From: an uncultured archaeon
Lineage (GTDB): Archaea > Iainarchaeota > Iainarchaeia > Iainarchaeales > DATDZZ01
Assembly (NCBI GenBank): GCA_964373795.1
Contig: CAYJVY010000006.1
Location: 28,468 to 92,467 of the forward strand
DNA length: 64,000 nt
Direction: 5' to 3'
The translations under genes and the position numbers were made by a program. Under the pieces are notes generated by a model. It was not told where the DNA came from, did no database searches, and worked only from the letters and a program-made list of their open reading frames with translations. Below are positions 833 to 40,328 of the stretch, piece after piece (position 1 is the first letter of the stretch; the number at the start of each line of letters is the position of its first letter).

Positions 833-1234
833 TAAAATCCTCAAAAAATGTTATATATAAGTTGTTTTAGAATAAAAAAATATTCCATTCAAAAAACAAA
901 AAAAACAAGCCATTATGTATACTAATTTTTTGTGTTTTTGGCAGAATATTTAAATATAAGGTTAGAGGCATATATATAGAGAAATTAATGTATTAAAGCA
1001 TTAGTTTCTTAAAAAAGAACTTAGTTGGTGAGCCTATCCAATTCTTCCTAAGTTCAAATAACTCTCTTAGCTTTGGAGAAGACAACTAATAGTTGTCTTT
1101 TCTCTAATTCCTTTAAAATTATGCTTATTTTGCCTGTTTTTAGAAAAAAGCTTTTAGAGGGTTATTTGACTTTAATTTAACAAATTTCCGCAAACTTTTC
1201 GCAACTGGTTTTCGTAAGCCTTTTTCTAAAAGGC

Positions 1235-2416
1235 TTAATGAGTCATTTTTTCAGCAAATTCGTCTTCGTTTGACTCTTCTCCTAAAACTTTTTTCACTGC
1301 TTCTTTGAAGTGATTTAATGAAATGCTTTTTTCATTTGCTCTGATTGCATTAATTCCTGACTCCATGCAAATAGCTTTAATGTCTGCTCCATTAGCTTTT
1401 TCAGTTAATTTAACTAATTCATCAATTGAAACATTTGAATCCATTTTCATTTTCTTTGAATGAATTTTAAATATTTCTTTTCTTGCTTTTTCATCTGGCA
1501 AGGGAACTTCAATTATTCTATCAAATCTTCCTGCTCTAAGCAATGCAGGGTCTAAAATATCTATTCTGTTTGTTGCAGCAATTATTTTCACGTTTTTCAC
1601 TTCATTAAATCCATCAATTTCAGCCAATAATTGCATTAAAGTTCTTTGAACTTCTCTGTCTCCTCCAGTTGTTGCATCAAGTCTTTGCGCGCCAATTGAA
1701 TCAATTTCATCAATGAAAATAATTGAATGCTTTTTTTCTTTAGCCATTTTAAATACATCTCTTACTAGTTTTGCTCCTTCCCCAATATATTTTCTTACTA
1801 ACTCTGAACCAGTTATTCCAATAAAAGTTGAATTAGTTGCATTTGCAACAGCCTTTGCAAGCATTGTTTTACCAGTTCCAGGTTCACCGTACAATAAAAC
1901 TCCGCATGGAGGTTCAATGCCTATTTCTTCAAATTTTTTTGGATGAGTTAAAGGTAAAATAATTGCTTCTTCTAATTCAAGAATTTCTTTTCTCAATCCC
2001 CCAATTTCTTTAAAAGTTACTTTAGGTTTTTCAACTATCTCCATTGCTCTTGCTCTATAATCAGTTGACTCAGTTAATATTTCCACTAAACTTAAATTTC
2101 TTTGATTCAAAGCAACCCTTAAACCGCTTTTAACCTTGCTCTTAAATTCTTCAGTTAAACTAATTAATAATTCAATTCCATTAGAGTTTTTTACAACTAA
2201 TTTGTCTTCCATTACTTCTTGAATTACTCCAACAATTAAAGGAGGTTCTCTTAATTCTTTTAATTCTTTTTGAAGCCTATTCAACTCACTTTCAATCTGA
2301 GAATGCTTCATTGAATTCAATTGTTTTTCTTGTTCTAGAACTCGAATTTTTTCCTCTAAAGTAAACACATAATCATATATGTTGAAAGGGGCTTTCTTAA
2401 CCTCAACTTCACTCAT
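1235..2416 (-). CDS. pan: Proteasome-activating nucleotidase PAN (AAA+ ATPase)
   Basis: N-terminal coiled coil followed by an AAA module. Walker A is GVLLYGEPGTGKTMLAKAVA and Walker B is IIFIDEIDSIGAQR. Length is 393 aa. Confidence 0.9.
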   Translation of the reverse strand: MSEVEVKKAPFNIYDYVFTLEEKIRVLEQEKQLNSMKHSQIESELNRLQKELKELREPPLIVGVIQEVMEDKLVVKNSNGIELLISLTEEFKSKVKSGLRVALNQRNLSLVEILTESTDYRARAMEIVEKPKVTFKEIGGLRKEILELEEAIILPLTHPKKFEEIGIEPPCGVLLYGEPGTGKTMLAKAVANATNSTFIGITGSELVRKYIGEGAKLVRDVFKMAKEKKHSIIFIDEIDSIGAQRLDATTGGDREVQRTLMQLLAEIDGFNEVKNVKIIAATNRIDILDPALLRAGRFDRIIEVPLPDEKARKEIFKIHSKKMKMDSNVSIDELVKLTEKANGADIKAICMESGINAIRANEKSISLNHFKEAVKKVLGEESNEDEFAEKMTH

Positions 2417-2519
2417 TAAATTCCCTCACAGAATAATTATATTACGCGAACAATGTATTTAAAGCTAACGATTTTAATAATATTTAGAGCAAAAATTAGT
2501 TCAAAAATTTAGTGATTTA

Positions 2520-2753
2520 ATGTATTTACAAAACTTGATTGAAGAAATAATTTTTTCCACAATAATATCAATTTTTGTGCTTGGAATTATTTTTATTGGC
2601 GAAAACTCAATTTTTTTAAATGCAGACAAATCAATTAATTATAGTTTGCTGGCAATAATGTTCGCAGTATTTTTTTTAATTATTTTTGTTTTACTTCATT
2701 ATATTTCTGGTGGAAAGATAGGTGAATTTCCAAACGATCCTTGGCTGCCATAA
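2520..2753 (+). CDS. Small hydrophobic hypothetical protein (2 predicted TM helices)
   Basis: ORF of 77 aa, strongly hydrophobic, in an intergenic position. No recognisable motif. Confidence 0.3.
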   Translation: MYLQNLIEEIIFSTIISIFVLGIIFIGENSIFLNADKSINYSLLAIMFAVFFLIIFVLLHYISGGKIGEFPNDPWLP

Positions 2754-2779
2754 AATGAATTGAAAAATTAAGTGATTTC

Positions 2780-3262
2780 ATGCCTTGCGAAATTTGTGGA
2801 GAAATATTAACTCAGGAAAGAAAAATTGAATTAGATGGACTAGTTTTTCTTGTATGCGAGAAATGTGTTCACCACGGCAGAGAATTAATTGAACGCCCGC
2901 AAACAAATAAAAAACAATTCAAAGCATTTGATTTAAGCAAGCAAGTAAAACACGAAATGCAAAGCGATAAAACTGAATTAATTCAAGATTATGGCAAGCA
3001 AATAAAAACAGCAAGAGAAAAAAAAGGTTTAACAATTGAGGATTTAGCAAAAAAAGTATTCGAAAAAAAATCTTTTCTGCACAGAATTGAATCACAAAAC
3101 GCAGTGCCATCAGATGAATTAATTAAAAAACTTGAAAAAGAATTAAATATTTCTCTTACAACAACAGTAAATGAAGTAGAATTAAATGAATTTGAAAGCC
3201 AAAAAGGAATGACTTTAGCTGATTTAATTGATAAAAAGATTTCAGAGCAAAAAAAGAATTAA
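2780..3262 (+). CDS. Archaeal MBF1-like transcription factor (N-terminal Zn ribbon plus C-terminal HTH/XRE domain)
   Basis: CEICG...CEKC zinc ribbon at the N-terminus. The C-terminal half (GLTIEDLAKKVFEKKSFLHRIESQNAVPSDELIKKLEKEL) fits an XRE-type helix-turn-helix. Confidence 0.6.
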   Translation: MPCEICGEILTQERKIELDGLVFLVCEKCVHHGRELIERPQTNKKQFKAFDLSKQVKHEMQSDKTELIQDYGKQIKTAREKKGLTIEDLAKKVFEKKSFLHRIESQNAVPSDELIKKLEKELNISLTTTVNEVELNEFESQKGMTLADLIDKKISEQKKN

Positions 3263-3271
3263 TGTGAATAA

Positions 3272-4669
3272 ATGATTTTAGAAATACTAGCAGGATTTTT
3301 ACTTGTATCACTTATATTTACCTACATTTTAAAGCATTTTAACATCGGAGAAACTCATGTCATTATTACTTTGCTTCGATCTAAAAAAGCAGTAAAATTT
3401 TTTGATTTGTTCACTAAACCAAAACGCTTGCTTGAATTAATTGCTGACTTTGGATTAATTATTGGCTTTGGAGCAATAGGAGTAGATTATTTATTTGGCA
3501 GAAAACTTTCACTTGTAAAAAGAATTGCATTATTTTTTGTTGCAGCAATTTTTTTTACTGCATTTTTTTTCTTTATTCTTTCACCTTTTTTTAAAAACCC
3601 TTTAATTGAAAACGATTATTCAATGCTTTTCTCGTTTTTTTTTGGCATTGCAGGTTTTTCTGGATTAATTTTAGTTACTTTAATTGTTTCAGGAATTGAA
3701 ATTATTTTCAGAACTCTTTCAGGGGAAAAAACTTGTCCAGCTGTAGCCCCAGTAATCCCTGGAGTTGAAATTCCTAATGTTCCAATAACTGTTCCATTGC
3801 ATGGATGGATTTCATTATTATTAATTTTAATTATTCATGAAGGAAGCCATGGAATTTTAATGAGAAAAGTTAAATTAACTGTTAAATCCACTGGAATTAT
3901 TTTGCTTGGCTTTCTCCCAATTGGGGCATTTGTTGAGCCAGAAGACAAGGAATTAAAAAAATTAAACAAATTAGATGCAGTAAGAATTTTTACGTCTGGA
4001 GCAACAGCTAATTTTCTTGCGTTCATTGTATTTGGATTTCTTTCCCTGCTTGCAATAGTTTTCCTAGTAAACCCTTTTCTTGTTCCAACATTTGATTCAT
4101 TGAATAGAATGTCTATTCAAGGAATTCAAATAGGGGAAATGCAAGAATTCTCTGAATTATGTGGAGTCAAATACTCTAATTCTGCTTTTGGAAAACTCTT
4201 GCCTGGAATGAAGTTATTAGAAGTTGAAGGACAAAAAATTCAAATTTTTTCTGACTTCATTAAACACTCTCAAGGAAAAAAAGAAGTAAAAGTCAAACTC
4301 AAATCCTTGGATGGAAAAATAGTTGAAGAAACTCTTTCAAGAAATAAGTTAAACTTGTTTGGTTTTACAGTTAAACCAATTCCAAATCCTGATTTTGAAA
4401 TGCCTTTTCATTTCACAGTAATTGGAATTGTTTTCAGTTTTCTTGCATCATTTATTTTATGGTTTGTTTTATTGAATTTAATGGTTTCACTTGTAAACTT
4501 TTTGCCTACAGAACCATTTGACGGAGGCAAGATTGCAAAAATAGTTTTCACTGAATACTTAGGTTTTACTGGTTGGAGTCAAGAATTTAAAGAAAAAATT
4601 ATTTCCAGATTCTTTGGAATTGGAACACTAATTCTTTTACTAATAAATATAATGCCTTTATTTCTTTAG
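3272..4669 (+). CDS. Site-2 protease family (M50) intramembrane zinc metalloprotease with PDZ-like insert
   Basis: Multi-pass membrane protein with an HExxH motif (IIHEGSHGILM) and a second M50 motif, NFLPTEPFDGGKI (NxxPxxxxDGG). Confidence 0.7.
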   Translation: MILEILAGFLLVSLIFTYILKHFNIGETHVIITLLRSKKAVKFFDLFTKPKRLLELIADFGLIIGFGAIGVDYLFGRKLSLVKRIALFFVAAIFFTAFFFFILSPFFKNPLIENDYSMLFSFFFGIAGFSGLILVTLIVSGIEIIFRTLSGEKTCPAVAPVIPGVEIPNVPITVPLHGWISLLLILIIHEGSHGILMRKVKLTVKSTGIILLGFLPIGAFVEPEDKELKKLNKLDAVRIFTSGATANFLAFIVFGFLSLLAIVFLVNPFLVPTFDSLNRMSIQGIQIGEMQEFSELCGVKYSNSAFGKLLPGMKLLEVEGQKIQIFSDFIKHSQGKKEVKVKLKSLDGKIVEETLSRNKLNLFGFTVKPIPNPDFEMPFHFTVIGIVFSFLASFILWFVLLNLMVSLVNFLPTEPFDGGKIAKIVFTEYLGFTGWSQEFKEKIISRFFGIGTLILLLINIMPLFL

Positions 4670-4755
4670 AAATTAAATTATTTATAAATAGCTTTTTGAA
4701 AAAATAAAAAAAAGATAGAAAGAATATCTTTCTTTTGCCGGGTAAAATATTCTTT

Positions 4756-5841
4756 CTATTTAATATAATCTAAGTCTAATTCTCTGTCTCTTCCGTAATA
4801 GTTTTTTGAGGATTTATTGTTGTTTGAATCAGGTCCTTTAATGTATGGGCTGTGAACTCCTGTAAAGATTGTAATGATTTCAATTTTGTTTTCAAAAGTT
4901 GGATCAACTCTTGCACCCCAAATTACTACTGCTTTTGGATCAATTTTATCAGTTAATCTTTCACCAATAGAGTTTGCTTCTCCTAAAGTCAATTCAGGTC
5001 CACCAGTAATGTGAATTAATGCTCCTGTTGCTCCGGCAATATCAACGTCTAATAAAGCGTTTTTCAAAGTATCTTCAACTACTTCGTTTACTTTATCAAC
5101 TGACTTTGACTCTCCTACAGCAATAACGCTTAATCCTTTATTACTCATTACTGATCTAACATCAGCATAATCTAAGTTAATTAAACTTGGCTGAGTAATT
5201 GTTTCAGTTATTCCTCTAACTGTTCTAGCAATAACTTCATCAGCTACTCTGAAAGCGTCTTGAATTGGCAAGTTTGGAACTAATTCAACTAATCTATTAT
5301 TGTCAATTACTACAACTGTATCAGTAACTTTTCTTAAAGTTTCAATTCCTTCTTCTGCTTTAATTAATCTAGCTTTTTCTAAAGCAAAAGGGTAAGTTAC
5401 AATTGCAATAACAATTGCTCCTTGATCTTTAGCAATTTCTGCAATAATTGGAGCTGCTCCAGTTCCAGTTCCTCCTCCCATTCCGCATGAAAGAAATAAC
5501 ATGTCTACTCCACTTAAAATTTCTTCCAAAGATTGTCTTGAAACCTCTGCAGCTTTTGCACCAATTTCAGGATAACCTCCAGTTCCTAATCCTCTAGTAA
5601 CACTTTTACCAATTAACACTTTAGTCAATTCATCATTAATGATTGCCAAGTGTTGTTTATCAGTGTTAACAGCTACTAGTTGAGCGCCACTAATGCCCAT
5701 ATTAGCCAATCTATTTACCGCATTACAACCTGCTCCTCCAGCACCAATAACCATTATCTTCGGAGCTCCAAATTCTTCAACATGCTCCTCAGTTTTAGTG
5801 TCTGTCTTTTGCATTGCGTCCGAAACTAAGCTTTTCATCAA
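4756..5841 (-). CDS. ftsZ: Cell division GTPase FtsZ
   Basis: Tubulin signature GGGTGTG within LFLSCGMGGGTGTGAAPIIAEIAKDQG, plus IMVIGAGGAGCNAVNRL at the N-terminus. Confidence 0.9.
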   Translation of the reverse strand: MMKSLVSDAMQKTDTKTEEHVEEFGAPKIMVIGAGGAGCNAVNRLANMGISGAQLVAVNTDKQHLAIINDELTKVLIGKSVTRGLGTGGYPEIGAKAAEVSRQSLEEILSGVDMLFLSCGMGGGTGTGAAPIIAEIAKDQGAIVIAIVTYPFALEKARLIKAEEGIETLRKVTDTVVVIDNNRLVELVPNLPIQDAFRVADEVIARTVRGITETITQPSLINLDYADVRSVMSNKGLSVIAVGESKSVDKVNEVVEDTLKNALLDVDIAGATGALIHITGGPELTLGEANSIGERLTDKIDPKAVVIWGARVDPTFENKIEIITIFTGVHSPYIKGPDSNNNKSSKNYYGRDRELDLDYIK

Positions 5842-6092
5842 AATACCACCCCTTAACCATTTAAAACGGTTAAATTAGTTTAAAAAAATACAAATTTTAG
5901 TAAAAAAATTTGTTTATAATAATTAATCCTAACTTATTTAAATACTTTTCGGTTGAAGAGCTCTAATAAGGCTTTTTTTTCAAAAAAGCCCAAAATAAAC
6001 GTTTTTTCCATTCAATTTCTTCTCCAAAATTAGCTTGTCAATTCATGGTTTAAATGGAAAAGTTAATAAAGTTCTTATGTATAATTATTATT

Positions 6093-6398
6093 GTGGGCTA
6101 GGCTGGGCGGGTAGCAGTCGCCTTTTCTGGAAATCTGCTTATGCCAGAGCCGAAGCTTGAAGGGCAGCTAAAGAACTGTGTTTAAGCCTGTTATTTTAGC
6201 CGTAGATCCTCTGTCCTTTAAGATTGTGTGTTCAAGTGAACCCCGCCAGACCTGGAAGGGTGCAACGGTAGCTTTTACATTTAATGCTTAAGGGGAAGCG
6301 GGGGGGAGGCGAATAACAGTTCACTTTTTCATGGTTTCTTTTTCTCACCTTTGAGCGTGCCCGCATTCTTCAATTAACGAACTCCGTGCATCCACGCT
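6093..6398 (+). ncRNA. Signal recognition particle RNA (7S/SRP RNA) candidate
   Basis: About 300-nt G+C-rich island in an AT-rich intergenic region, with no ORF. It contains CAGACCUGGAAGGGUGCAACGGUAGC, which closely resembles the conserved SRP helix-8 motif CAGGUCCGGAAGGAAGCAGC of 4.5S/7S RNA. The 5' end GUGGGCUAGGCUGGGCGGG is typical of archaeal 7S RNA. Boundaries are approximate. Confidence 0.55.
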
Positions 6399-6585
6399 TA
6401 AAACATTCTTAATAAAATAGAAAAACTGTTTAAAATAGGTTTTAACTAATTCTAAACTCAAAAACAAGGCATTTCATCTTTTGAGGCGCGGATTTAGTAT
6501 CTAGATTTGTTATGTATATTGTTCTTTTTGTTTGATTAATTTTTTAATGCATATAATTTAAAGTTTTTAGCTGCCTGTTTTTCTC

Positions 6586-7095
6586 ATGAAAGTAATTCTT
6601 TACATGGCTGTAACTGCTAATGGTTTAATTGCTCGCGAAGATGATTCAGCAGATTTTGTTTCCAAAACATCTTGGAAAAGCTATTTAAAAAAAGTTAGAG
6701 AATCAGATTATGCTGTTATAGGTAAAAGAACATATGAAATTATGCCTGTTGAAGAATTTATTAAAGAAACAAAATATTTAGTTTTTACACATGTCTTGAG
6801 TTTGGAAAAAAAGGTTAAAAATGTTGAATTTACAAACAAACCCCTTAAAGATGTTTTACATGAACTTAAAAATAAGGGGGTAAAAAAAGCCGCCATTTTT
6901 GGTGGCGGAAAACTGAATGCTTCTTTTATGGCTCAAAATTTAGTGGATGAAATTTTTTTGGATGTAATGTCAATAGTTCTTGGAAAAGGAATTCCATTAT
7001 TTAATGGCGAAAATTTTGAAGCAAAATTAAAACTGTTAGGCGTGAAAAAGCTTTCAGCAAATGAAATGCAGTTGCATTTTAAAGTGAAAAAATAG
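6586..7095 (+). CDS. Dihydrofolate reductase-like / RibD C-terminal domain reductase
   Basis: MKVILYMAVTANGLIA...IFGGGKLNASFMAQNLVDEIFLDVMSIVLGKGIPLF matches the DHFR/RibD_C fold signature. Length 169 aa. Confidence 0.6.
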   Translation: MKVILYMAVTANGLIAREDDSADFVSKTSWKSYLKKVRESDYAVIGKRTYEIMPVEEFIKETKYLVFTHVLSLEKKVKNVEFTNKPLKDVLHELKNKGVKKAAIFGGGKLNASFMAQNLVDEIFLDVMSIVLGKGIPLFNGENFEAKLKLLGVKKLSANEMQLHFKVKK

Positions 7096-15583: not shown

Positions 15584-15656
15584 ACGCCCCAGGGAAGATT
15601 CGAACTTCCGACCCTTCGGTTAACAGCCGAATGCTCCACCACTAAGCTACCGGGGC
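15584..15656 (-). tRNA. tRNA-Asn (anticodon GTT), no encoded CCA
   Basis: The reverse complement folds as a cloverleaf: GCCCCGG acceptor, anticodon stem TTCGG/CCGAA with loop CTGTTAA, T-arm GGAAG-TTCGAAT-CTTCC, discriminator G. Confidence 0.9.
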
Positions 15657-15693
15657 ACAGTTTTTCTTTTTAAAAGAAAAGTTGGCAAAAGAA
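15657..15693 (-). promoter_or_regulatory. Conserved tRNA upstream promoter-like element (TTCTTTTGCCAACTTTTCTTTTAAAAAG)
   Basis: The sequence immediately 5' of tRNA-Asn is nearly identical to the sequence 5' of tRNA-Ser (34281-34317) and similar to that 5' of tRNA-Leu (40203-40244). Confidence 0.5.
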
Positions 15694-15728
15694 ATTTTCT
15701 AATATATAAAAGTAGAATTATAATAGTT

Positions 15729-32543: not shown

Positions 32544-34082
32544 TTATTTTCTTGTTTTTGCTAGAAATCCTTGTTGTTCTCGAGTCATTCCAGTCCTTTG
32601 AGGTGAAAGTTTTCGTGCCTGGCCTGCAACTGCATTGAATAAACTTCCTACATCAACGTTAACGCTTCCTTGCCAAGCATTTCTATCAGCCATTTCAAAT
32701 TCAGCTGTAAAATTTACTCCATTGCCTGTAGTCCACCAACCTCTTAACCCTCCACCAAATTCTTTTCCAAAAGTTAATTCTCTTCTTCCAAGTTTATCAA
32801 AAGTTAAAAATGCTTCAATTCCTCTACCTCTTTCAAGATTTTCTAAACCAATTCCTCCAACAGTTCTTAAAGTATCAGCTGCTTCTTGAATTGATTGATA
32901 ATCTAATTGCAATCTATAAGAAATATTCCATCTATTTCCTGAAGGAGTAAGTTGTGCTCCAGCTTTTTCTAATTCAATTTTTTGATCTGGAGTTAAAGTT
33001 TTTCCTTCAACTCTAATTGATCCATCTCTTCCAATTGGAATTCTTCCAACAAGTAATCCTCTTAGAGAATGAGATCTTAAAATTGGATCGTCTTGAAATG
33101 CATGTTGTAAAGATAAATCAACTTTTCCACCTAAAGCTCTTCTTAAATCAATTCCTGTTACAACTCTTCTACCACTTTCTTTTGTTCCTTCTAGAGGGCC
33201 ATGAACTACTTCTGTTTTAGTCCAACCAGGACCTAAAGCTAAATCAATTCTTCTTCCAAATAAATCAAATTCATGTCCAAACATTAAATCAAATGTTTCC
33301 CTTCTTCTAACATCTCTTAACCTTGTTTTAACATCAATTGGACCAAAAGGAATTGGAGGTTGTGCAACTCCGCCAATTTCAGTTTGAACTTGTCCTGAAA
33401 CAGCTTTATTAGTAGTTGTTTCACTTGATTCATGTTCTCTTAAATATCTTCCACCTAATTTAATATCTGGCAAGTCAAGTGGAAATCTATGAATTACATC
33501 ACTTCCAGTTGTTTTATCTCTTCTAAGAAATTCTATAAACACTCCATCAATTATTCCTAAATCAAAATCTAATTGATTTACTTCTCTTCCAGCATTTTTT
33601 TGAATTCTTGAAACAGTTTCAGTATCAGTTGTAATAACAATTGGAGTTCCATGAATTTCTTGACTTGAAACGCTTCTTGAAGAAGCTGTAGAAGTCTTTG
33701 AAGGTTTTCCTCCAGTTCTTACTCCATAACCATAACTTAAACCAACTTGTCCATCAGGTAAATGAACTGTATTCAAAGAATTTCTAGTTGACCTAGGCAA
33801 GTCAACTCCAGTTTTTTCTCCTGACTTCATTAAAACACAACCTGCAAGCAAAGGAAGAACTAATAATGCAGCTCTGCCACCTCTTTTCCCAGGAAAAACA
33901 GCTGCAACTGGTTTGTTTCCTTTTCTAACAATTACTGCCCCTCTTTTTTTAAAATTTGCAATTTCAGCAGGAGTAGCAGGAGATAATGGTCTAAAAAGTT
34001 TTGCGCCTCTTTCTCTTACGCCTCGTAAAGCTGCACCAGCTTTTTTAAATTCTCTAACAAGTCTTCTTTCAGGTCTTGGCAT
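32544..34082 (-). CDS. Hypothetical beta-rich protein with bacterial-type lipobox (LLAGC) in a G+C-richer segment; true start unclear
   Basis: ORF of 512 aa in a segment visibly richer in G+C than its flanks. LLVLPLLAGC resembles a lipoprotein signal or lipobox. The body is G/R/D/T-rich with alternating patterns. The N-terminal 70 aa of the ORF are probably upstream read-through. Confidence 0.45.
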   Translation of the reverse strand: MPRPERRLVREFKKAGAALRGVRERGAKLFRPLSPATPAEIANFKKRGAVIVRKGNKPVAAVFPGKRGGRAALLVLPLLAGCVLMKSGEKTGVDLPRSTRNSLNTVHLPDGQVGLSYGYGVRTGGKPSKTSTASSRSVSSQEIHGTPIVITTDTETVSRIQKNAGREVNQLDFDLGIIDGVFIEFLRRDKTTGSDVIHRFPLDLPDIKLGGRYLREHESSETTTNKAVSGQVQTEIGGVAQPPIPFGPIDVKTRLRDVRRRETFDLMFGHEFDLFGRRIDLALGPGWTKTEVVHGPLEGTKESGRRVVTGIDLRRALGGKVDLSLQHAFQDDPILRSHSLRGLLVGRIPIGRDGSIRVEGKTLTPDQKIELEKAGAQLTPSGNRWNISYRLQLDYQSIQEAADTLRTVGGIGLENLERGRGIEAFLTFDKLGRRELTFGKEFGGGLRGWWTTGNGVNFTAEFEMADRNAWQGSVNVDVGSLFNAVAGQARKLSPQRTGMTREQQGFLAKTRK

Positions 34083-34167
34083 TACACATCACATCTTTTT
34101 ATTCTTTTAATTTGATATATTTATATTAATATCAACATTCTTGATATTTAAATAAGTTATGGTTATT

Positions 34168-34296
34168 TTATTAACATTCATTTGACAAAATTTTGACAAA
34201 TCTTTTGTTAACATTTTTTGCCAACATTCTTTTGTTAGCATTCTTTTGTCAACATTCAGTTGTTAACATTTTTTGTTAACATTCTTTTGTCAACTT
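34168..34296. repeat. About 9 tandem copies of a 14-bp unit (consensus ATTCTTTTGTTAAC / TTTTGTCAACATTC)
   Basis: Read directly from the sequence: ttaacattcattt / tgacaaaatttt / tgacaaatctttt / gttaacatttttt / gccaacattctttt / gttagcattctttt / gtcaacattcagt / tgttaacatttttt / gttaacattctttt / gtcaac. The unit equals the distal half of the conserved tRNA upstream element. Confidence 0.75.
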
Positions 34297-34317
34297 TTCT
34301 TTTTAAGAAAAGTTGTT
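34281..34317 (+). promoter_or_regulatory. tRNA-Ser upstream promoter-like element (TTCTTTTGTCAACTTTTCTTTTTAAGAAAAG)
   Basis: Near-identical to the 5' flank of tRNA-Asn and similar to that of tRNA-Leu. Positioned about -37 to -1. Confidence 0.5.
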
Positions 34318-34401
34318 GCAGAGGTGGCGGAGTGGCCTAACGCGGCAGCCTGCTAAGCTGTTTCTCGAAAGGGAGCGCGAGTTCAAATCTCGCCCTCTGC
34401 G
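34318..34401 (+). tRNA. tRNA-Ser (anticodon GCT), long variable arm, no encoded CCA
   Basis: GCAGAGG acceptor, anticodon stem GCAGC/GCTGT with loop CTGCTAA, long variable arm, T-arm GCGAG-TTCAAAT-CTCGC, 3' acceptor CCTCTGC, discriminator G. Confidence 0.9.
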
Positions 34402-34486
34402 TTCAAAAACTTTTAGAAAAAGTTTTTGTGATCAAAAGTTTTTTGCTTAGAGCAAAAAAGAAAAAGTAGGTTACAAGGAATGTTTT

Positions 34487-35149
34487 ATGTTTAAAAAAAT
34501 ATCAAGAATTGTAAGACTTAGGAGAAGGCTTGCAAAAGGAGATCAACACAGAATTGAAAGACGAAGAGAATTGATTGAACTTCGATATACAAATGAAGTA
34601 ATTGGGAAACTTTCTAGAGAATTAAATAAATTGCGTAGCAGAGTAGAAAATTGGGATAAAATTAATCCTGGAAATGATTCTAGACAAAGACAAGTAACTC
34701 GTTATGGTTCGCTTGTTATAGAGTTATGGAGTATTAATACTTTGGCACGAAACCTTGTAGGGAGTACAATTTATCCAAAACTATTGTTAAAAGTAAAAAT
34801 AGAGGAAGGACCAAAAAAAGATAGAAGAACGCATTTAGTTCAACTACAAGATTTAGAAAAAATTGGAGCCACCTGTCAAAAAATTGCAACAGGAGCAAAT
34901 TATACTGTAAGAGAATTAGCTGATGATTTAGTTAATCATGAAAGTGATTTAGGAAATAAAAAAGCAGAACAAGTTAAGCAAAGTTTAGATATAATCATAA
35001 CTGATTTAAAGCAAATTATTGGATGGACTGCCCCTTATGCAGAGGAAATTAAAAATAGTCTTAAGCGATCAAAAATTAGTGGAACAGCTTTATTTCTTGG
35101 CACTGCAAGAAAACTTAAATCATTACGCAAAAAATTCATGAGCAATTAA
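34487..35149 (+). CDS. Hypothetical basic protein
   Basis: ORF of 220 aa immediately downstream of tRNA-Ser. R/K-rich N-terminus (RIVRLRRRLAKGDQHRIERRREL). No recognised motif. Confidence 0.4.
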   Translation: MFKKISRIVRLRRRLAKGDQHRIERRRELIELRYTNEVIGKLSRELNKLRSRVENWDKINPGNDSRQRQVTRYGSLVIELWSINTLARNLVGSTIYPKLLLKVKIEEGPKKDRRTHLVQLQDLEKIGATCQKIATGANYTVRELADDLVNHESDLGNKKAEQVKQSLDIIITDLKQIIGWTAPYAEEIKNSLKRSKISGTALFLGTARKLKSLRKKFMSN

Positions 35150-40150: not shown

Positions 40151-40202
40151 TTTGTAACCTTAAATTTAAATAAATAGTTAACTTAAATCATTTATATTAA
40201 TT

Positions 40203-40244
40203 TCTTTTGTTAACATGCATATTTTTTGATTAAAAAAGATTAAA
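40203..40244 (+). promoter_or_regulatory. tRNA-Leu upstream promoter-like element (TTCTTTTGTTAACAT...TTTTTGATTAAAAAAG)
   Basis: Shares TTCTTTTGTTAAC and the T-run/AAAAAG pattern with the 5' flanks of tRNA-Ser and tRNA-Asn. Confidence 0.45.
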
Positions 40245-40328
40245 GCACGGGTACCGAAGCGGTTAAACGGACCGGACTCAAGATCCGGTGACTTAGTGTC
40301 TTCACAGGTTCAAATCCTGTCCCGTGCA
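40245..40328 (+). tRNA. tRNA-Leu (anticodon CAA), long variable arm, no encoded CCA
   Basis: GCACGGG acceptor, anticodon stem CCGGA/TCCGG with loop CTCAAGA, long variable arm, T-arm CAGG-TTCAAAT-CCTG, 3' CCCGTGC, discriminator A. Confidence 0.85.

Follow-up and report, generated by a model that had tools for sequence, protein, structure and literature searches.

Three tRNA genes, for tRNA-Asn(GTT), tRNA-Ser(GCT) and tRNA-Leu(CAA), are encoded in the window, as the whole 64-kb stretch of DNA analysed here is called (Table 1). The exact 13-mer TTCTTTTGYYAAC occurs four times in these 64 kb, each time 5' of one of the three genes, at positions 15693-15681 (minus strand), 34241, 34282 and 40202. 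With one mismatch allowed, seven matches were found in the window against 1.96 expected, a number reached in none of 100 shuffles, which bears out the view of the initial annotation that a non-random element is linked to the tRNAs. Between the end of the 13-mer and the tRNA lie 23 nt at tRNA-Ser, 24 nt at tRNA-Asn and 30 nt at tRNA-Leu; at the first two genes, the motif spans approximately -36 to -24 relative to tRNA position +1. The near-identity of the 5' flanks that had been described for all three genes applies only to tRNA-Ser and tRNA-Asn, which have the 22 nt TTCTTTTGYCAACTTTTCTTTT in common; the tRNA-Leu flank shares just a 13-14-mer with them, and its hairpin is different and weak. 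The GTTAAC palindrome, pointed out earlier, does not form the conserved core, being mostly replaced by GCCAAC in relatives, and a restriction-type palindrome (HincII, GTYRAC) was rejected on the same grounds. The gene for a 512-aa protein, described as G+C-rich, has a GC content of 35.1%, compared to 31.5% for the window. This protein and one of 220 aa, the neighbours of tRNA-Ser, are orphans among 5.8 billion proteins. Upstream of the SRP RNA gene at 6091-6366 of the window, the sequence is of the ordinary TATA type and does not contain the motif.

Table 1. Features of the window discussed in the text (coordinates in the window; putative boxes are assigned from their sequence).
Feature	Position	Strand	Basis	Remarks
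tRNA-Asn(GTT)	15585-15656	-	ARAGORN, Rfam	
tRNA-Asn element	15662-15694	-	mirror match 8/8	
tRNA-Asn third strand TTTCTTTT	15694-15687	-		
tRNA-Asn linker GCCAAC	15686-15681	-		
tRNA-Asn pyrimidine arm TTTTCTTT	15680-15673	-		
tRNA-Asn loop	15672-15670	-		
tRNA-Asn purine arm AAAGAAAA	15669-15662	-		tRNA starts at 15656
Putative TATA-like box TTTATATA	15703-15710	-	sequence	9 nt 5' of Asn motif
Tandem array, consensus ATTCTTTTGTYAAC	34163-34294	+	Tandem Repeats Finder, manual unit parsing	10 units of 11-14 nt
tRNA-Ser Hoogsteen-type third strand TTCTTTT	34282-34288	+	mirror match 7/8	gap 4 nt
tRNA-Ser hairpin CAACTTTTCTT / TTT / AAGAAAAGTTG	34291-34315	+	inverted repeat, 100% complementary	11 bp
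tRNA-Ser(GCT)	34318-34401	+	ARAGORN, Rfam	
Putative TATA-like box TTTATATT	40191-40198	+	sequence	3 nt 5' of Leu motif
tRNA-Leu degenerate copy	40201-40238	+	sequence	
tRNA-Leu copy, TTTCTTTTGTTAAC	40201-40214	+		followed by 7-nt spacer with ATGC
Putative ATGC initiator-like box near tRNA-Leu	40215-40218	+		
tRNA-Leu weak hairpin TTTTTT / GATT / AAAAAA	40222-40227 / 40232-40237	+		
tRNA-Leu(CAA)	40245-40328	+	ARAGORN, Rfam	

The motif shared by the tRNA flanks is the outer third of a composite unit of about 35 nt, consisting of a mirror repeat plus a hairpin. The layout of the unit is 5'-TTCTTTT-G-YCAA-CTTTTCTT-loop-AAGAAAAG-TTG-tRNA. The motif comprises the pyrimidine strand TTCTTTT and a linker, and it mirrors the 5' arm of the hairpin CAAC-TTTTCTT/AAGAAAA-GTTG, which adjoins the tRNA and in which blocks 2 and 3 of the unit pair. 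Since block 1 is the mirror of block 2, it provides a parallel pyrimidine match (T.A-T, C+.G-C) of the purine arm. With the Hoogsteen, the Watson-Crick pyrimidine and the purine strand following each other in order on one strand, the unit is laid out as an intrastrand pyrimidine-motif triplex. Such motifs are defined by three consecutive homopyrimidine/homopurine blocks with stems of at least 6-8 nt and short loops; this block order is present at tRNA-Ser (TTCTTTT/CTTTTCTT/AAGAAAAG, with a 5-nt linker and a 3-nt loop) and at tRNA-Asn (TTTCTTTT/TTTTCTTT/AAAGAAAA). In the scheme of Holder et al. (2015, PMC4666352), this is a class IV intrastrand triplex, and the opposite strand is arranged as a purine-motif one of class II. 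At tRNA-Ser, the third strand, a parallel pyrimidine match of the purine arm AAGAAAA, is followed by G34289 and the linker TCAA. The hairpin (pyrimidine arm 34294-34301, purine arm 34305-34312) stops 2 nt short of the tRNA and folds with a dG of -9.3 kcal/mol as DNA (z -4.1) and -10.2 kcal/mol as RNA (z -3.4), values that refer to the hairpin only, as modelled with ViennaRNA. The tRNA-Asn hairpin is weak by itself (dG -4.5 kcal/mol, z -1.1). In the tRNA-Leu copy, the C of the third strand does not match the purine arm, and the fold is no better than that of shuffles (z -0.25). Mixed C/T hairpins with a mirror flank are found only twice in the 64 kb, at tRNA-Ser (7/8) and tRNA-Asn (8/8). The element could fold into a triple helix, as predicted from its sequence symmetry alone; the C+.G-C triple requires protonation.

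The window belongs to a DPANN archaeon of the Diapherotrites/Iainarchaeota type. Sequence variants of the element in Diapherotrites-type DPANN relatives alter all three strands jointly and keep the triplex pairing rule, by which a third strand running parallel to the purine strand has T opposite A and C opposite G. In 25 of 25 archaeal elements, which represent at least seven distinct patterns, third strand and pyrimidine arm have the same run-length pattern. Covarying variants (third strand/pyrimidine arm/purine arm) are, for instance, TTCTTTC/CCTTTCTT/AAGAAAGG from L007, TCTTTCTTTTT/CTTTTTCTTTCT/AGAAAGAAAAAG and TTCTTTTT/CTTTTTCTT/AAGAAAAAG. A perfect mirror strand was detected in the 5' flank of 14 out of 87 hairpins lying outside the search patterns, compared to 0.7 expected from shuffled flanks (maximum 4 in 1000 shuffles). 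Over all loci, 63 perfect mirrors and 19 perfect direct copies were counted, 16 of them being both (mirror-only 47, direct-only 3). Copies on the same contig differ in sequence, each with its own three-strand symmetry (L007 and L109), which argues for selection on the structure at each site and not for recent copying. A chance likeness of low-complexity sequence in an AT-rich genome can practically be dismissed. It is true that there are 27 occurrences of the bare 8-mer TTCTTTTG in the window and that some metagenome matches without the TTC extension look accidental. However, the 13-mer is confined to tRNAs in the window at a count that no shuffle reached, an identical 34-mer is located 5' of tRNA-Pro in another MAG, and the mirror statistics far exceed those of the shuffled controls. 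TTC before TTTTG is present in nearly all family matches, although it was outside the metagenome search pattern.

In the relatives, units that differ in sequence but share the three-way symmetry mark the borders of stable-RNA genes. They are found 5' of tRNAs (three copies each in the window and L007, as well as in L109 and L014) and, in inverted orientation, 3' of tRNAs (L013, L020, L066, L131, L109, L007 and L100) as well as 3' of SRP RNA and of RNase P RNA, the gene for the latter being present in the lineage. Further copies are located in rRNA spacers, in a 23S mini-intron and, next to the 5' splice site, in introns of tRNA-Ser, tRNA-Ala and tRNA-Arg. At gene ends, the hairpin lies on the gene-proximal side and the third strand is distal. 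The hairpin is found within 0-6 nt of the mature RNA ends (5' side, 0-2 nt; 3' side, 0-6 nt), and its distance to the 5' splice site of introns is 0-4 nt. Not every tRNA gene has the element: the orthologous tRNA-Asn and tRNA-Leu genes of the syntenic relative L061 and the tRNA-Trp gene of L146 do without it. As a control, 79 kb from four Diapherotrites relatives holding a single tRNA contained no element. The "intron" of the L061 tRNA-Ser(GCT) gene consists of a 3'-flank-type module followed by a 5'-flank-type module, an inverted element pair flanking GC hairpins. With its two modules, this locus may be an adjacent split tRNA gene, the halves of which would possess their own terminator and promoter. 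The G.U versus A.C asymmetry of the outer stem, considered as a sign of which strand folds as RNA, came out at 33 to 11 for the strand that reads away from the gene, a ratio confounded by bulges and sub-families. At the gathering threshold, no Rfam 15 family covers the element in the window and 51 loci; the matches obtained were the stable-RNA genes themselves (tRNA, SRP RNA, rRNA, RNase P RNA) and one group I intron (RF00028). A scan of viral contigs gave no matches. The same pattern was observed in bacterial contigs (gut Clostridia, Bacteroidota and bacteria of 23-26% GC); these matches are tentatively read as other members of the general triplex-motif class caught by the pattern rather than as proof of common descent.

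The array upstream of tRNA-Ser is a tandem reiteration of the module formed by third strand and linker, each unit comprising a third-strand-type pyrimidine tract, a G and YYAAC. Units 4 to 10 (34201-34294, n = 7) are clean, while units 1 to 3 are degenerate; Tandem Repeats Finder reported 34201-34303 with a period of 14, 7.4 copies and 79% matches. The earlier estimate of about nine copies over 34168-34296 is fairly close to the ten units of the manual parse, and the array was rightly taken for an amplified distal half of the element. It is the same in the window and in Logan contigs from two independent read sets (ERR3478686 and ERR4904391). The recombination or instability hotspot suggested by the annotation weakly matches the literature, in which intrastrand-triplex repeats are linked to instability of the genome (Holder et al. 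2015, PMC4666352), and the third-strand module is reiterated in several lineages; the array, however, is identical in the three assemblies. The distal module is also reiterated in L007 and L109 (3' side, two copies each) and in L058. Gene-flanking reiterations (window, L007 and L109) lie on the side away from the gene and have their T-tracts on the strand reading toward it; the one in L058 has no stable-RNA gene within 3.6 kb. Two Logan contigs terminate within the hairpin, and the element would account for assembly breaks at tRNA genes in these genomes.

The reading tentatively favoured here, with a confidence somewhat short of even, is that of a structure-forming boundary element of stable-RNA transcription units. 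The gene-ward strand, when single-stranded (as non-template DNA or read-through RNA), would fold into a hairpin clamped by the T-rich third strand, and its T-tracts (T4-T6) would face polymerases approaching the gene. Oligo-T of this length is the archaeal termination signal, so the element may set off the stable-RNA gene from its surroundings, or insulate it, by making incoming polymerases pause or terminate. Additional third-strand units would supply more T-tracts and alternative third strands. The terminator/insulator step of this model is weak, because the copies in tRNA and 23S rRNA introns must be transcribed through T4-T6 runs. Moreover, the upstream neighbours of tRNA-Ser and tRNA-Leu in the window are divergent, so that no incoming sense transcription is obvious there, and the orientation of the neighbouring genes in relatives is mixed. 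The low thermodynamic stability of the Asn and Leu hairpins and the tRNA genes of L061 and L146 that do without the element also speak against the boundary model. A role at the RNA level would explain at least as well why copies lie in introns and so close (0-6 nt) to mature RNA ends.

Three other explanations were weighed against the boundary element. The initial annotation had considered a reiterated BRE/TATA-type promoter and a motif of stable-RNA promoters in general; in a wider form, TTCTTTTGYYAAC would be a tRNA-specific core-promoter element or transcription-factor site between TATA box and transcription start, multiplied as an operator array at tRNA-Ser. This is improbable. At tRNA-Asn and tRNA-Leu, a TATA-like box does stand shortly before the motif, the 5' copies of L014, L007 and L109 follow A/T-rich sequences that are likewise TATA-like, the distance from third strand to purine arm (approximately 24-26 nt) equals the spacing of usually about 26 nt between an archaeal TATA box and the start, and within the window the motif is restricted to tRNAs. 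From the position of its TATA box, transcription of tRNA-Asn would start at about the CAAC at the hairpin base. TTCTTTTGYYAAC itself, however, is not TATA-like: an A/T-rich TTTAWATA-like box about 26 nt before the start with a purine-rich BRE 5' of it is not contained in the motif, and the TATA boxes at tRNA-Asn and tRNA-Leu are separate from it. The spacing from TATA box to motif varies (9 nt for Asn, 3 nt for Leu and 0-1 nt in relatives), whereas that of motif, hairpin and tRNA is fixed. Copies of the element are neither confined to the upstream side nor to one orientation or a fixed distance from the start, and a promoter function is impossible for those that lie in introns or follow tRNA, SRP RNA and RNase P RNA genes. 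Together with these copies, the orthologous L061 tRNAs without the element leave the BRE/TATA reading unsupported. These tRNAs and the element-free tRNA-Trp of L146, which has a TATA-like TTTTTATA in the usual place, have plain TATA promoters, the SRP RNA promoter of the window manages without the motif, and mirror symmetry with a hairpin arm has no rationale in a protein-binding site. A bacterial sigma-70 promoter with TTGTCA/TTGACA as -35 box was rejected as well, the window being archaeal (SRP RNA, PAN, FtsZ) and lacking a -10 box.

According to the second explanation, which is unlikely on the present evidence, the element acts in the precursor RNA as a structure of leader, trailer or intron. 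In the 5' copies, a hairpin clamped by a U.A-U/C+.G-C triplex would lie against the processing site and seal the flanking RNA end released by RNase P or RNase Z, as in MALAT1, or alternatively protect the tRNA fold against invasion by AU-rich flanks; the array would then represent a leader RNA that is rich in U and capped at its 3' end by a triple helix. Every location of the element is an excised segment directly beside mature stable-RNA sequence, and the order of Hoogsteen U-strand, Watson-Crick U-strand, A-rich strand and tRNA matches that of MALAT1 ENE, A-rich tract and mascRNA. In addition, the purine arm of the tRNA-Ser leader is 78% complementary to its own 3' trailer, echoing the leader-trailer interaction of MALAT1, and an RNase P RNA gene is available in the lineage. 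Against this, the TATA boxes of tRNA-Asn and tRNA-Leu predict a start past the third strand, so that these transcripts would lack it. In copies at 3' ends and in introns, the sense RNA runs from the pyrimidine arm through the purine arm to a purine third strand, a purine-motif order that is not known to form stable RNA triplexes. Upstream of tRNA-Ser and tRNA-Leu, moreover, no gene points in the same direction, so there is no 3' end to protect. A selfish or neutral, structure-prone repeat of the REP/MITE/PIT type, spreading or tolerated only beside the stable-RNA genes and introns of compact genomes and without host function, is likewise rather unlikely. Its proneness to slippage would produce the array, and its patchy presence between syntenic relatives, the MITE-looking inverted pair around GC hairpins in the L061 tRNA-Ser intron, the reiterated modules, the vicinity of insertion scars and an integrated element, the linkage of bacterial triplex repeats to rearrangements and the similar two-hairpin modules in bacterial intergenic DNA are in line with this explanation. 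Opposed to it are the same-contig copies of L007 and L109 with their individual three-strand symmetry, the lack of target-site duplications and of an associated transposase, the negative scan of viral contigs and the identity of the array in three assemblies. Specific repeat classes did not apply. MITE/REP elements (REP/RAYT) are recognised by many near-identical copies, to which MITEs add terminal inverted repeats and a duplicated target site, and REPs a GTAG/GTGG head and a RAYT transposase; here, same-contig copies differ, target-site duplications are absent, the only inverted pair is that of the L061 intron and no transposase is encoded in the window. Integron attC sites are 57-141 nt long, have RYYYAAC...GTTRRRY cores and extrahelical bases, and lie beside an integron integrase or in a cassette array; the likeness is limited to the YYAAC/GTTRR ends; the hairpin of the element has 25-30 nt, is perfectly paired and lies outside any integrase or cassette context. 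IS200/IS605 ends were considered for the RYYAAC...GTTRR ends and the hairpins and were rejected, as their defining features are missing.

Natural triple helices with a defined role are rare; most of them stabilise eukaryotic or viral RNAs or belong to riboswitches and ribozymes. Intrastrand-triplex repeats of prokaryotes have been catalogued, to our knowledge without an established function or gene association. The co-variation of three strands, the strict position and orientation and the presence in introns offer a concrete setting for asking what triplex motifs do, candidate roles being the insulation of transcription, the protection or processing of RNA ends and induced instability. The furthest-reaching reading would be that DPANN archaea (Diapherotrites and relatives) use a dedicated triplex-forming element functional in stable-RNA biogenesis, as counterpart of the MALAT1 module or as polar barrier, a claim we regard as rather unlikely. 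If true, the counterpart version would cap RNAs released by tRNA processing and the barrier version would insulate tRNA, SRP RNA, RNase P RNA and rRNA genes, with third-strand modules amplifiable as arrays under either. This would add an unrecognised feature to tRNA gene architecture in poorly known DPANN archaea. Searches in PMC and bioRxiv found no paper describing such an element at stable-RNA genes.

Among known systems, the archaeal oligo-T terminators, of which TTTTAATTTT after Methanococcus tRNA genes is an example, resemble the element in that interrupted T-tracts (TTTTCTTT) of the relatives begin a few nt past the 3' ends of tRNA, SRP RNA and RNase P RNA, and in that several signals may occur in a row, as in the array. 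In contrast to the element, terminators require neither a hairpin nor mirror symmetry, and the copies of the window are located 5' of tRNAs and other copies inside transcribed introns. Archaeal BRE/TATA promoters include those at a fixed distance from the tRNAs of Nanoarchaeum equitans, reportedly described by Randau et al. in 2008. The element sits where BRE/TATA would be expected for a leaderless tRNA, but it is not TATA-like, canonical TATA boxes are separate and further upstream, it is also found inverted at 3' ends, and its lineage, unlike N. equitans, has an RNase P RNA gene. The MALAT1/MEN-beta ENE, for which Brown et al. reportedly assigned the strand roles in the MALAT1 triple helix in 2012 and 2014, shares the U-rich Hoogsteen strand, the U-rich Watson-Crick strand and the A-rich tract immediately 5' of a tRNA-type RNase P site, the single C+.G-C among U.A-U triples and an A-rich leader able to pair with the 3' trailer. 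It differs in being part of a eukaryotic lncRNA with a proven RNA triple helix, whereas the triplex of the archaeal element is predicted from sequence, half of the archaeal copies are inverted (3' flanks, introns), and two of the three window tRNAs have no upstream gene. In an ENE-type RNA triple helix, a 3'-terminal A-rich tract, produced by processing at the tRNA-like structure downstream, is clamped by two U-rich strands. The MALAT1 layout, with ENE, A-rich tract and then mascRNA (PMC8457004), is found in the 5' copies with respect to order and RNase P-site adjacency, while transcription of the third strand is doubtful from the TATA positions and the polarity of 3' and intron copies is opposite.

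In the genomes of prokaryotes, repeats with an intrastrand triplex motif are numerous and not randomly distributed (Holder et al. 2015, PMC4666352). They are also known from archaea, where G-rich repeats of Methanomicrobiaceae have triplex potential (PMC8044849). PIT elements, BoxC and TMECO (Hoyne & Maher 2000/2002; PMC4666352) have in common with the element three consecutive homopurine/homopyrimidine blocks by which a strand folds back twice, a complementary strand of the complementary class (IV vs II), and a repeated, intergenic and non-random occurrence linked to instability. The element is placed beside them by likeness and is rated a probable variant of the known intrastrand-triplex repeats. 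Those repeats belong to the G/C-rich purine-motif class II of Proteobacteria, cyanobacteria and methanogens with no reported gene link, whereas the archaeal element is A/T-rich (T.A-T with a single C+.G-C), its pyrimidine-motif strand always reads toward the stable-RNA gene, it abuts mature RNA ends and splice sites, and its third-strand module is tandemly reiterated.

The exact 13-mer TTCTTTTGYYAAC, the outer part of an element of approximately 35 nt, occurs four times in the window, each time 5' of one of the three tRNAs. With one mismatch allowed, seven matches were found (1.96 expected), a number reached in 0 of 100 dinucleotide shuffles. The shorter 8-mer TTCTTTTG is frequent (27 matches in the window), so that specificity resides in the full motif. 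The near-identity of the 5' flanks reported in the initial annotation applies to tRNA-Ser and tRNA-Asn, which have 22 nt in common, but not to tRNA-Leu, which shares the 13-14-mer alone. The 14-bp array of about nine copies described upstream of tRNA-Ser was recovered by Tandem Repeats Finder (period 14, 7.4 copies, 79% matches) and comprises ten units when delimited by hand, seven clean and three degenerate. Its unit, A-TTCTTTT-G-TYAAC, corresponds to a putative third strand with linker and stem base but lacks the hairpin arms; the array thus repeats the distal module in tandem, with a hairpin attached to the last unit only. Two Logan assemblies (ERR3478686 and ERR4904391) contain an identical array, and the same array in three assemblies gives no indication of ongoing instability. 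Both Logan contigs (L001 and L002, from independent runs) terminate at window position 34310, within the hairpin, which is consistent with a k-mer that recurs at further tRNA loci in this genome.

Features of the window and locations of the element in retrieved loci (L-numbers)
Locus	Feature	Position	Strand or orientation	Remark
Window	Archaeal SRP RNA	6091-6366		
Window	tRNA-Asn(GTT)	15585-15656	minus	
Window	Canonical TATA box of tRNA-Asn	15710-15703		9 nt upstream of motif
Window	CARDB/DUF11 protein, 762 aa	17430-19718	minus	
Window	Giant ORF, 4190 aa	19782-32354	minus	
Window	512-aa gene	32544-34082	minus	
Window	Array, delimited by hand	34163-34294		
Window	Array, Tandem Repeats Finder	34201-34303		
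Window	tRNA-Ser(GCT)	34318-34401	plus	
Window	tRNA-Ser trailer hairpins	34404-34459	plus	
Window	220-aa gene	34487-35149	plus	
Window	Canonical TATA box of tRNA-Leu	40191-40198		3 nt upstream of motif
Window	tRNA-Leu(CAA)	40245-40328	plus	
L007/L106	Element 5' of tRNA-Leu(GAG), Ser(TGA), Ser(GGA)			different sequence version at each
L109	Element 5' of tRNA-Ala			
L014	Element 5' of tRNA-Pro			34-mer identical to window Ser element
L013, L020, L066, L131, L109, L007	Element at tRNA 3' end		inverted	immediately after gene
L100	Element past tRNA 3' end		inverted	63 nt past 3' end
L061	Element at SRP RNA 3' end		inverted	immediately after gene
L118	Element at RNase P RNA 3' end		inverted	immediately after gene
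L061	Element in tRNA-Ser(GCT) intron			at 5' splice site; second, forward copy near 3' splice site
L112	Element in tRNA-Ala(TGC) intron			at 5' splice site
L118	Element in tRNA-Arg(TCT) intron			at 5' splice site
	Further element copies in rRNA spacers			
L007	Insertion after tRNA-Ser(TGA)	3800-4640	minus	
L016 (= L123)	Duplication and insert	1240-1500		
L037	Region with 23S rRNA and spacer tRNA-Ala	2950-7010		
L037	Group I intron	5482-5804		
L037	Mini-insertion	about 6238-6300		
L071	Tandem elements	2538-2661		
L072, L078, L101, L113, L117, L119, L120	Bacterial copies			gut, 57-65% GC
L029, L082, L092, L079	Bacterial copies			Bacteroidota
L073, L087	Bacterial copies			23-26% GC

The motif is directly followed by a hairpin abutting the tRNA. 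That of tRNA-Ser (CAACTTTTCTT/TTT/AAGAAAAGTTG; 11 bp, 100% complementary) ends 2 nt short of G1 of the tRNA; its folding energy is -9.3 kcal/mol for DNA (z -4.1) and -10.2 kcal/mol for RNA (z -3.4). The hairpin of tRNA-Asn (TTTTCTTT/AAAGAAAA) is weak in folding and that of tRNA-Leu is a degenerate T6/A6 stem. The T-rich part of the motif, TTCTTTT, mirrors the pyrimidine arm TTTTCTT and hence complements the purine arm AAGAAAA base by base without reversal. Judged from the sequence, this mirror relation is the one that obeys the parallel pyrimidine third-strand rule (T.A-T and C+.G-C). The order on one strand, Hoogsteen strand, Watson-Crick pyrimidine strand and purine strand, is the layout of class IV intrastrand triplexes, or of class II on the complementary strand (Holder et al. 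2015, PMC4666352). Only two mixed C/T hairpins with a mirror flank are present in the window, those of tRNA-Ser (7/8) and tRNA-Asn (8/8).

Relatives were obtained by using the shared 22-mer to scan one genome for each species and a motif-plus-hairpin pattern to scan metagenomes, which yielded a coherent archaeal set besides bacterial and chance-like matches. All were retrieved via the element itself, except for a 79-kb control, and the taxonomic labels of MAGs are those deposited. Co-varying three-strand variants were found 5' (TTCTTTC / CCTTTCTT / AAGAAAGG) and 3' (TCTTTCTTTTT / CTTTTTCTTTCT / AGAAAGAAAAAG) of tRNA-Ser in L007, in L109 (TCTTTCTTTT / CTTTTCTTTCT / AGAAAGAAAAG), and in L061 (TTCTTTTT / CTTTTTCTT / AAGAAAAAG), there also at the SRP RNA (TTTCTTTC / CCTTTCTTT / AAAGAAAGG). 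In 25/25 archaeal elements, third strand and pyrimidine arm have the same T-run pattern when the former is read from the linker outward. Among the informative hairpins of all loci, a perfect mirror is present in the 5' flank of 63 and a perfect direct copy in 19, of which 16 are also mirrors. For hairpin sides outside the search patterns, 14 of 87 have a perfect mirror (0.7 expected with shuffled flanks, at most 4 in 1000 shuffles), and the mirror-completing TTC, outside the metagenome search pattern as well, was found in nearly all family matches. To our knowledge, no replication-based mechanism yields a non-reversed complement; the natural explanation of the mirror symmetry is selection for Hoogsteen pairing. 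We infer that the element may indeed form a triple helix.

Whether 5' or 3' of the gene or within an intron, every copy has its hairpin on the side of the exon or mature RNA and its third strand farther away, so that the pyrimidine-motif strand always reads toward the gene. No element was found in the control, four Diapherotrites loci retrieved with CysRS (79 kb, one tRNA), whose tRNA-Trp has a plain TTTTTATA promoter. L061, from a Ca. Iainarchaeum MAG with 52% GC, is syntenic with the window (935-6973 and 6091-40328, respectively): SRP RNA, tRNA-Asn, tRNA-Ser(GCT) and tRNA-Leu(CAA) follow in the same order, within 6 kb compared to 34 kb. The element is absent from tRNA-Asn and tRNA-Leu of L061 and is thus optional. 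Reiterated distal modules (two units of linker and third strand) are found 3' of tRNA-Ser in L007 and of tRNA-Ala in L109, the latter gene being preceded by tandem modules of hairpin B, third strand and linker. In gene-flanking cases extra units lie on the gene-distal side, while L058 harbors several units without a stable-RNA gene within 3.6 kb. A metagenome contig with 38% GC (L071) contains a tandem of three complete triplex-type elements, each of which has a matching third strand of its own.

Several of these loci contain introns or insertions. The tRNA-Ser intron of L061 (approximately 130 nt) consists of a module of 3'-flank type (hairpin, purine strand, GC hairpin) followed by one of 5'-flank type (GC hairpin, third strand, hairpin), an arrangement reminiscent of an adjacent split tRNA or of a MITE-like insertion. 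The archaeal 23S rRNA gene of L037 harbors a group I intron (RF00028, 70 bits) and a mini-insertion of approximately 62 nt with a reverse element; the spacer tRNA-Ala apparently has two introns. Directly after tRNA-Ser(TGA) of L007, an insertion of 0.8 kb that contains two small ORFs displaces the original 3' triplex-type element; a duplicate of the tRNA 3' end (gcgtgagttcgaatctcaccccctgcg) borders the insertion, the signature of an integrated element. In L016, a duplicate of approximately 70 nt of a protein-gene 3' end flanks an insert of approximately 140 bp, of which the element forms the final 35 nt, possibly a scar left by insertion or recombination.

The window (31.5% GC), part of an NCBI contig of 100,324 bp, has an archaeal gene content, including SRP RNA, PAN ATPase, FtsZ and CARDB proteins. 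Its CysRS is most similar to proteins labelled 'Candidatus Diapherotrites archaeon' (68% identity), which identifies the source as a DPANN archaeon. The 512-aa neighbour of tRNA-Ser, with 35% GC, is hardly G+C-rich, in contrast to the initial annotation. Neither this protein nor the 220-aa neighbour has a Pfam domain, and each matched only itself among 5.8 billion proteins searched, which places the tRNA and its array in an orphan-gene pocket. The giant ORF adjoins the CARDB/DUF11 protein, a pair typical in style of DPANN surface-protein loci, and this locus splits the RNA genes clustered within 6 kb in L061. Directly 3' of tRNA-Ser, two strong tandem hairpins are located (CAAAAACTTTT/AAAAGTTTTTG and TTTTTTGC/GCAAAAAA; dG -15.7 kcal/mol, z -5.3), the first of which has its 3' arm present again as a direct repeat. 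With this trailer, the purine arm of the leader shows 78% complementarity.

A BRE/TATA-type promoter, as initially proposed, is unlikely, since the motif is not TATA-like and separate TATA boxes lie at variable distances from it, in contrast to the fixed spacing of motif, hairpin and tRNA; such a role is impossible for copies that lie inverted at 3' ends or within introns. The element might instead form a MALAT1-like RNA triple helix (PMC8457004) in the leader of the pre-tRNA; its strand order and its adjacency to the RNase P site are a good fit, and RNase P RNA is present in the lineage. From the TATA positions, however, transcription would start past the third strand, and the sense RNA of 3' and intron copies has purine-motif polarity. 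Patchy occupancy and the inverted pair within the L061 intron would suit a selfish or neutral repeat, which the element might be, whereas the site-specific three-strand co-variation favours structural selection at each site.

The reading ranked first is that the element forms a structure and serves as a boundary module for stable-RNA transcription units, where it would terminate or insulate against polymerases nearing the gene from either side. Of this explanation, the last step is the least secure. Gene-flanking copies carry T-tracts (T4-T6) and, where present, the reiterations on the strand read by gene-approaching polymerases; in relatives of higher GC content, the first T-tract follows a GC hairpin, a terminator-like arrangement. 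The co-oriented gene ending 39 nt before tRNA-Asn argues for termination or insulation, while the divergent upstream neighbours of tRNA-Ser and tRNA-Leu, and the intron copies, through which transcription must pass, argue against it.

A triplex-type hairpin with a TTC-TTTTG third strand also occurs in clearly bacterial intergenic regions, often 2 nt past the stop codon of convergent genes or approximately 35 nt upstream of a start codon. The gut group has a second, co-varying hairpin in front (GCGAAAC-GAA-GTTTCGC and variants), and the bacterial copies matched no Rfam family. Either common descent or convergence could underlie the archaeal and bacterial pattern. The nearest known class comprises the intrastrand triplex repeats PIT, BoxC and TMECO of bacteria and the G-rich repeats of Methanomicrobiaceae (PMC4666352, PMC8044849). 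Full-text literature searches returned no description of A/T-rich triplex-type elements at the boundaries of archaeal tRNA or other stable-RNA genes. By its layout the element would be an A/T-rich member of this class, in contrast to the known repeats, which are G/C-rich and without known gene association or function.
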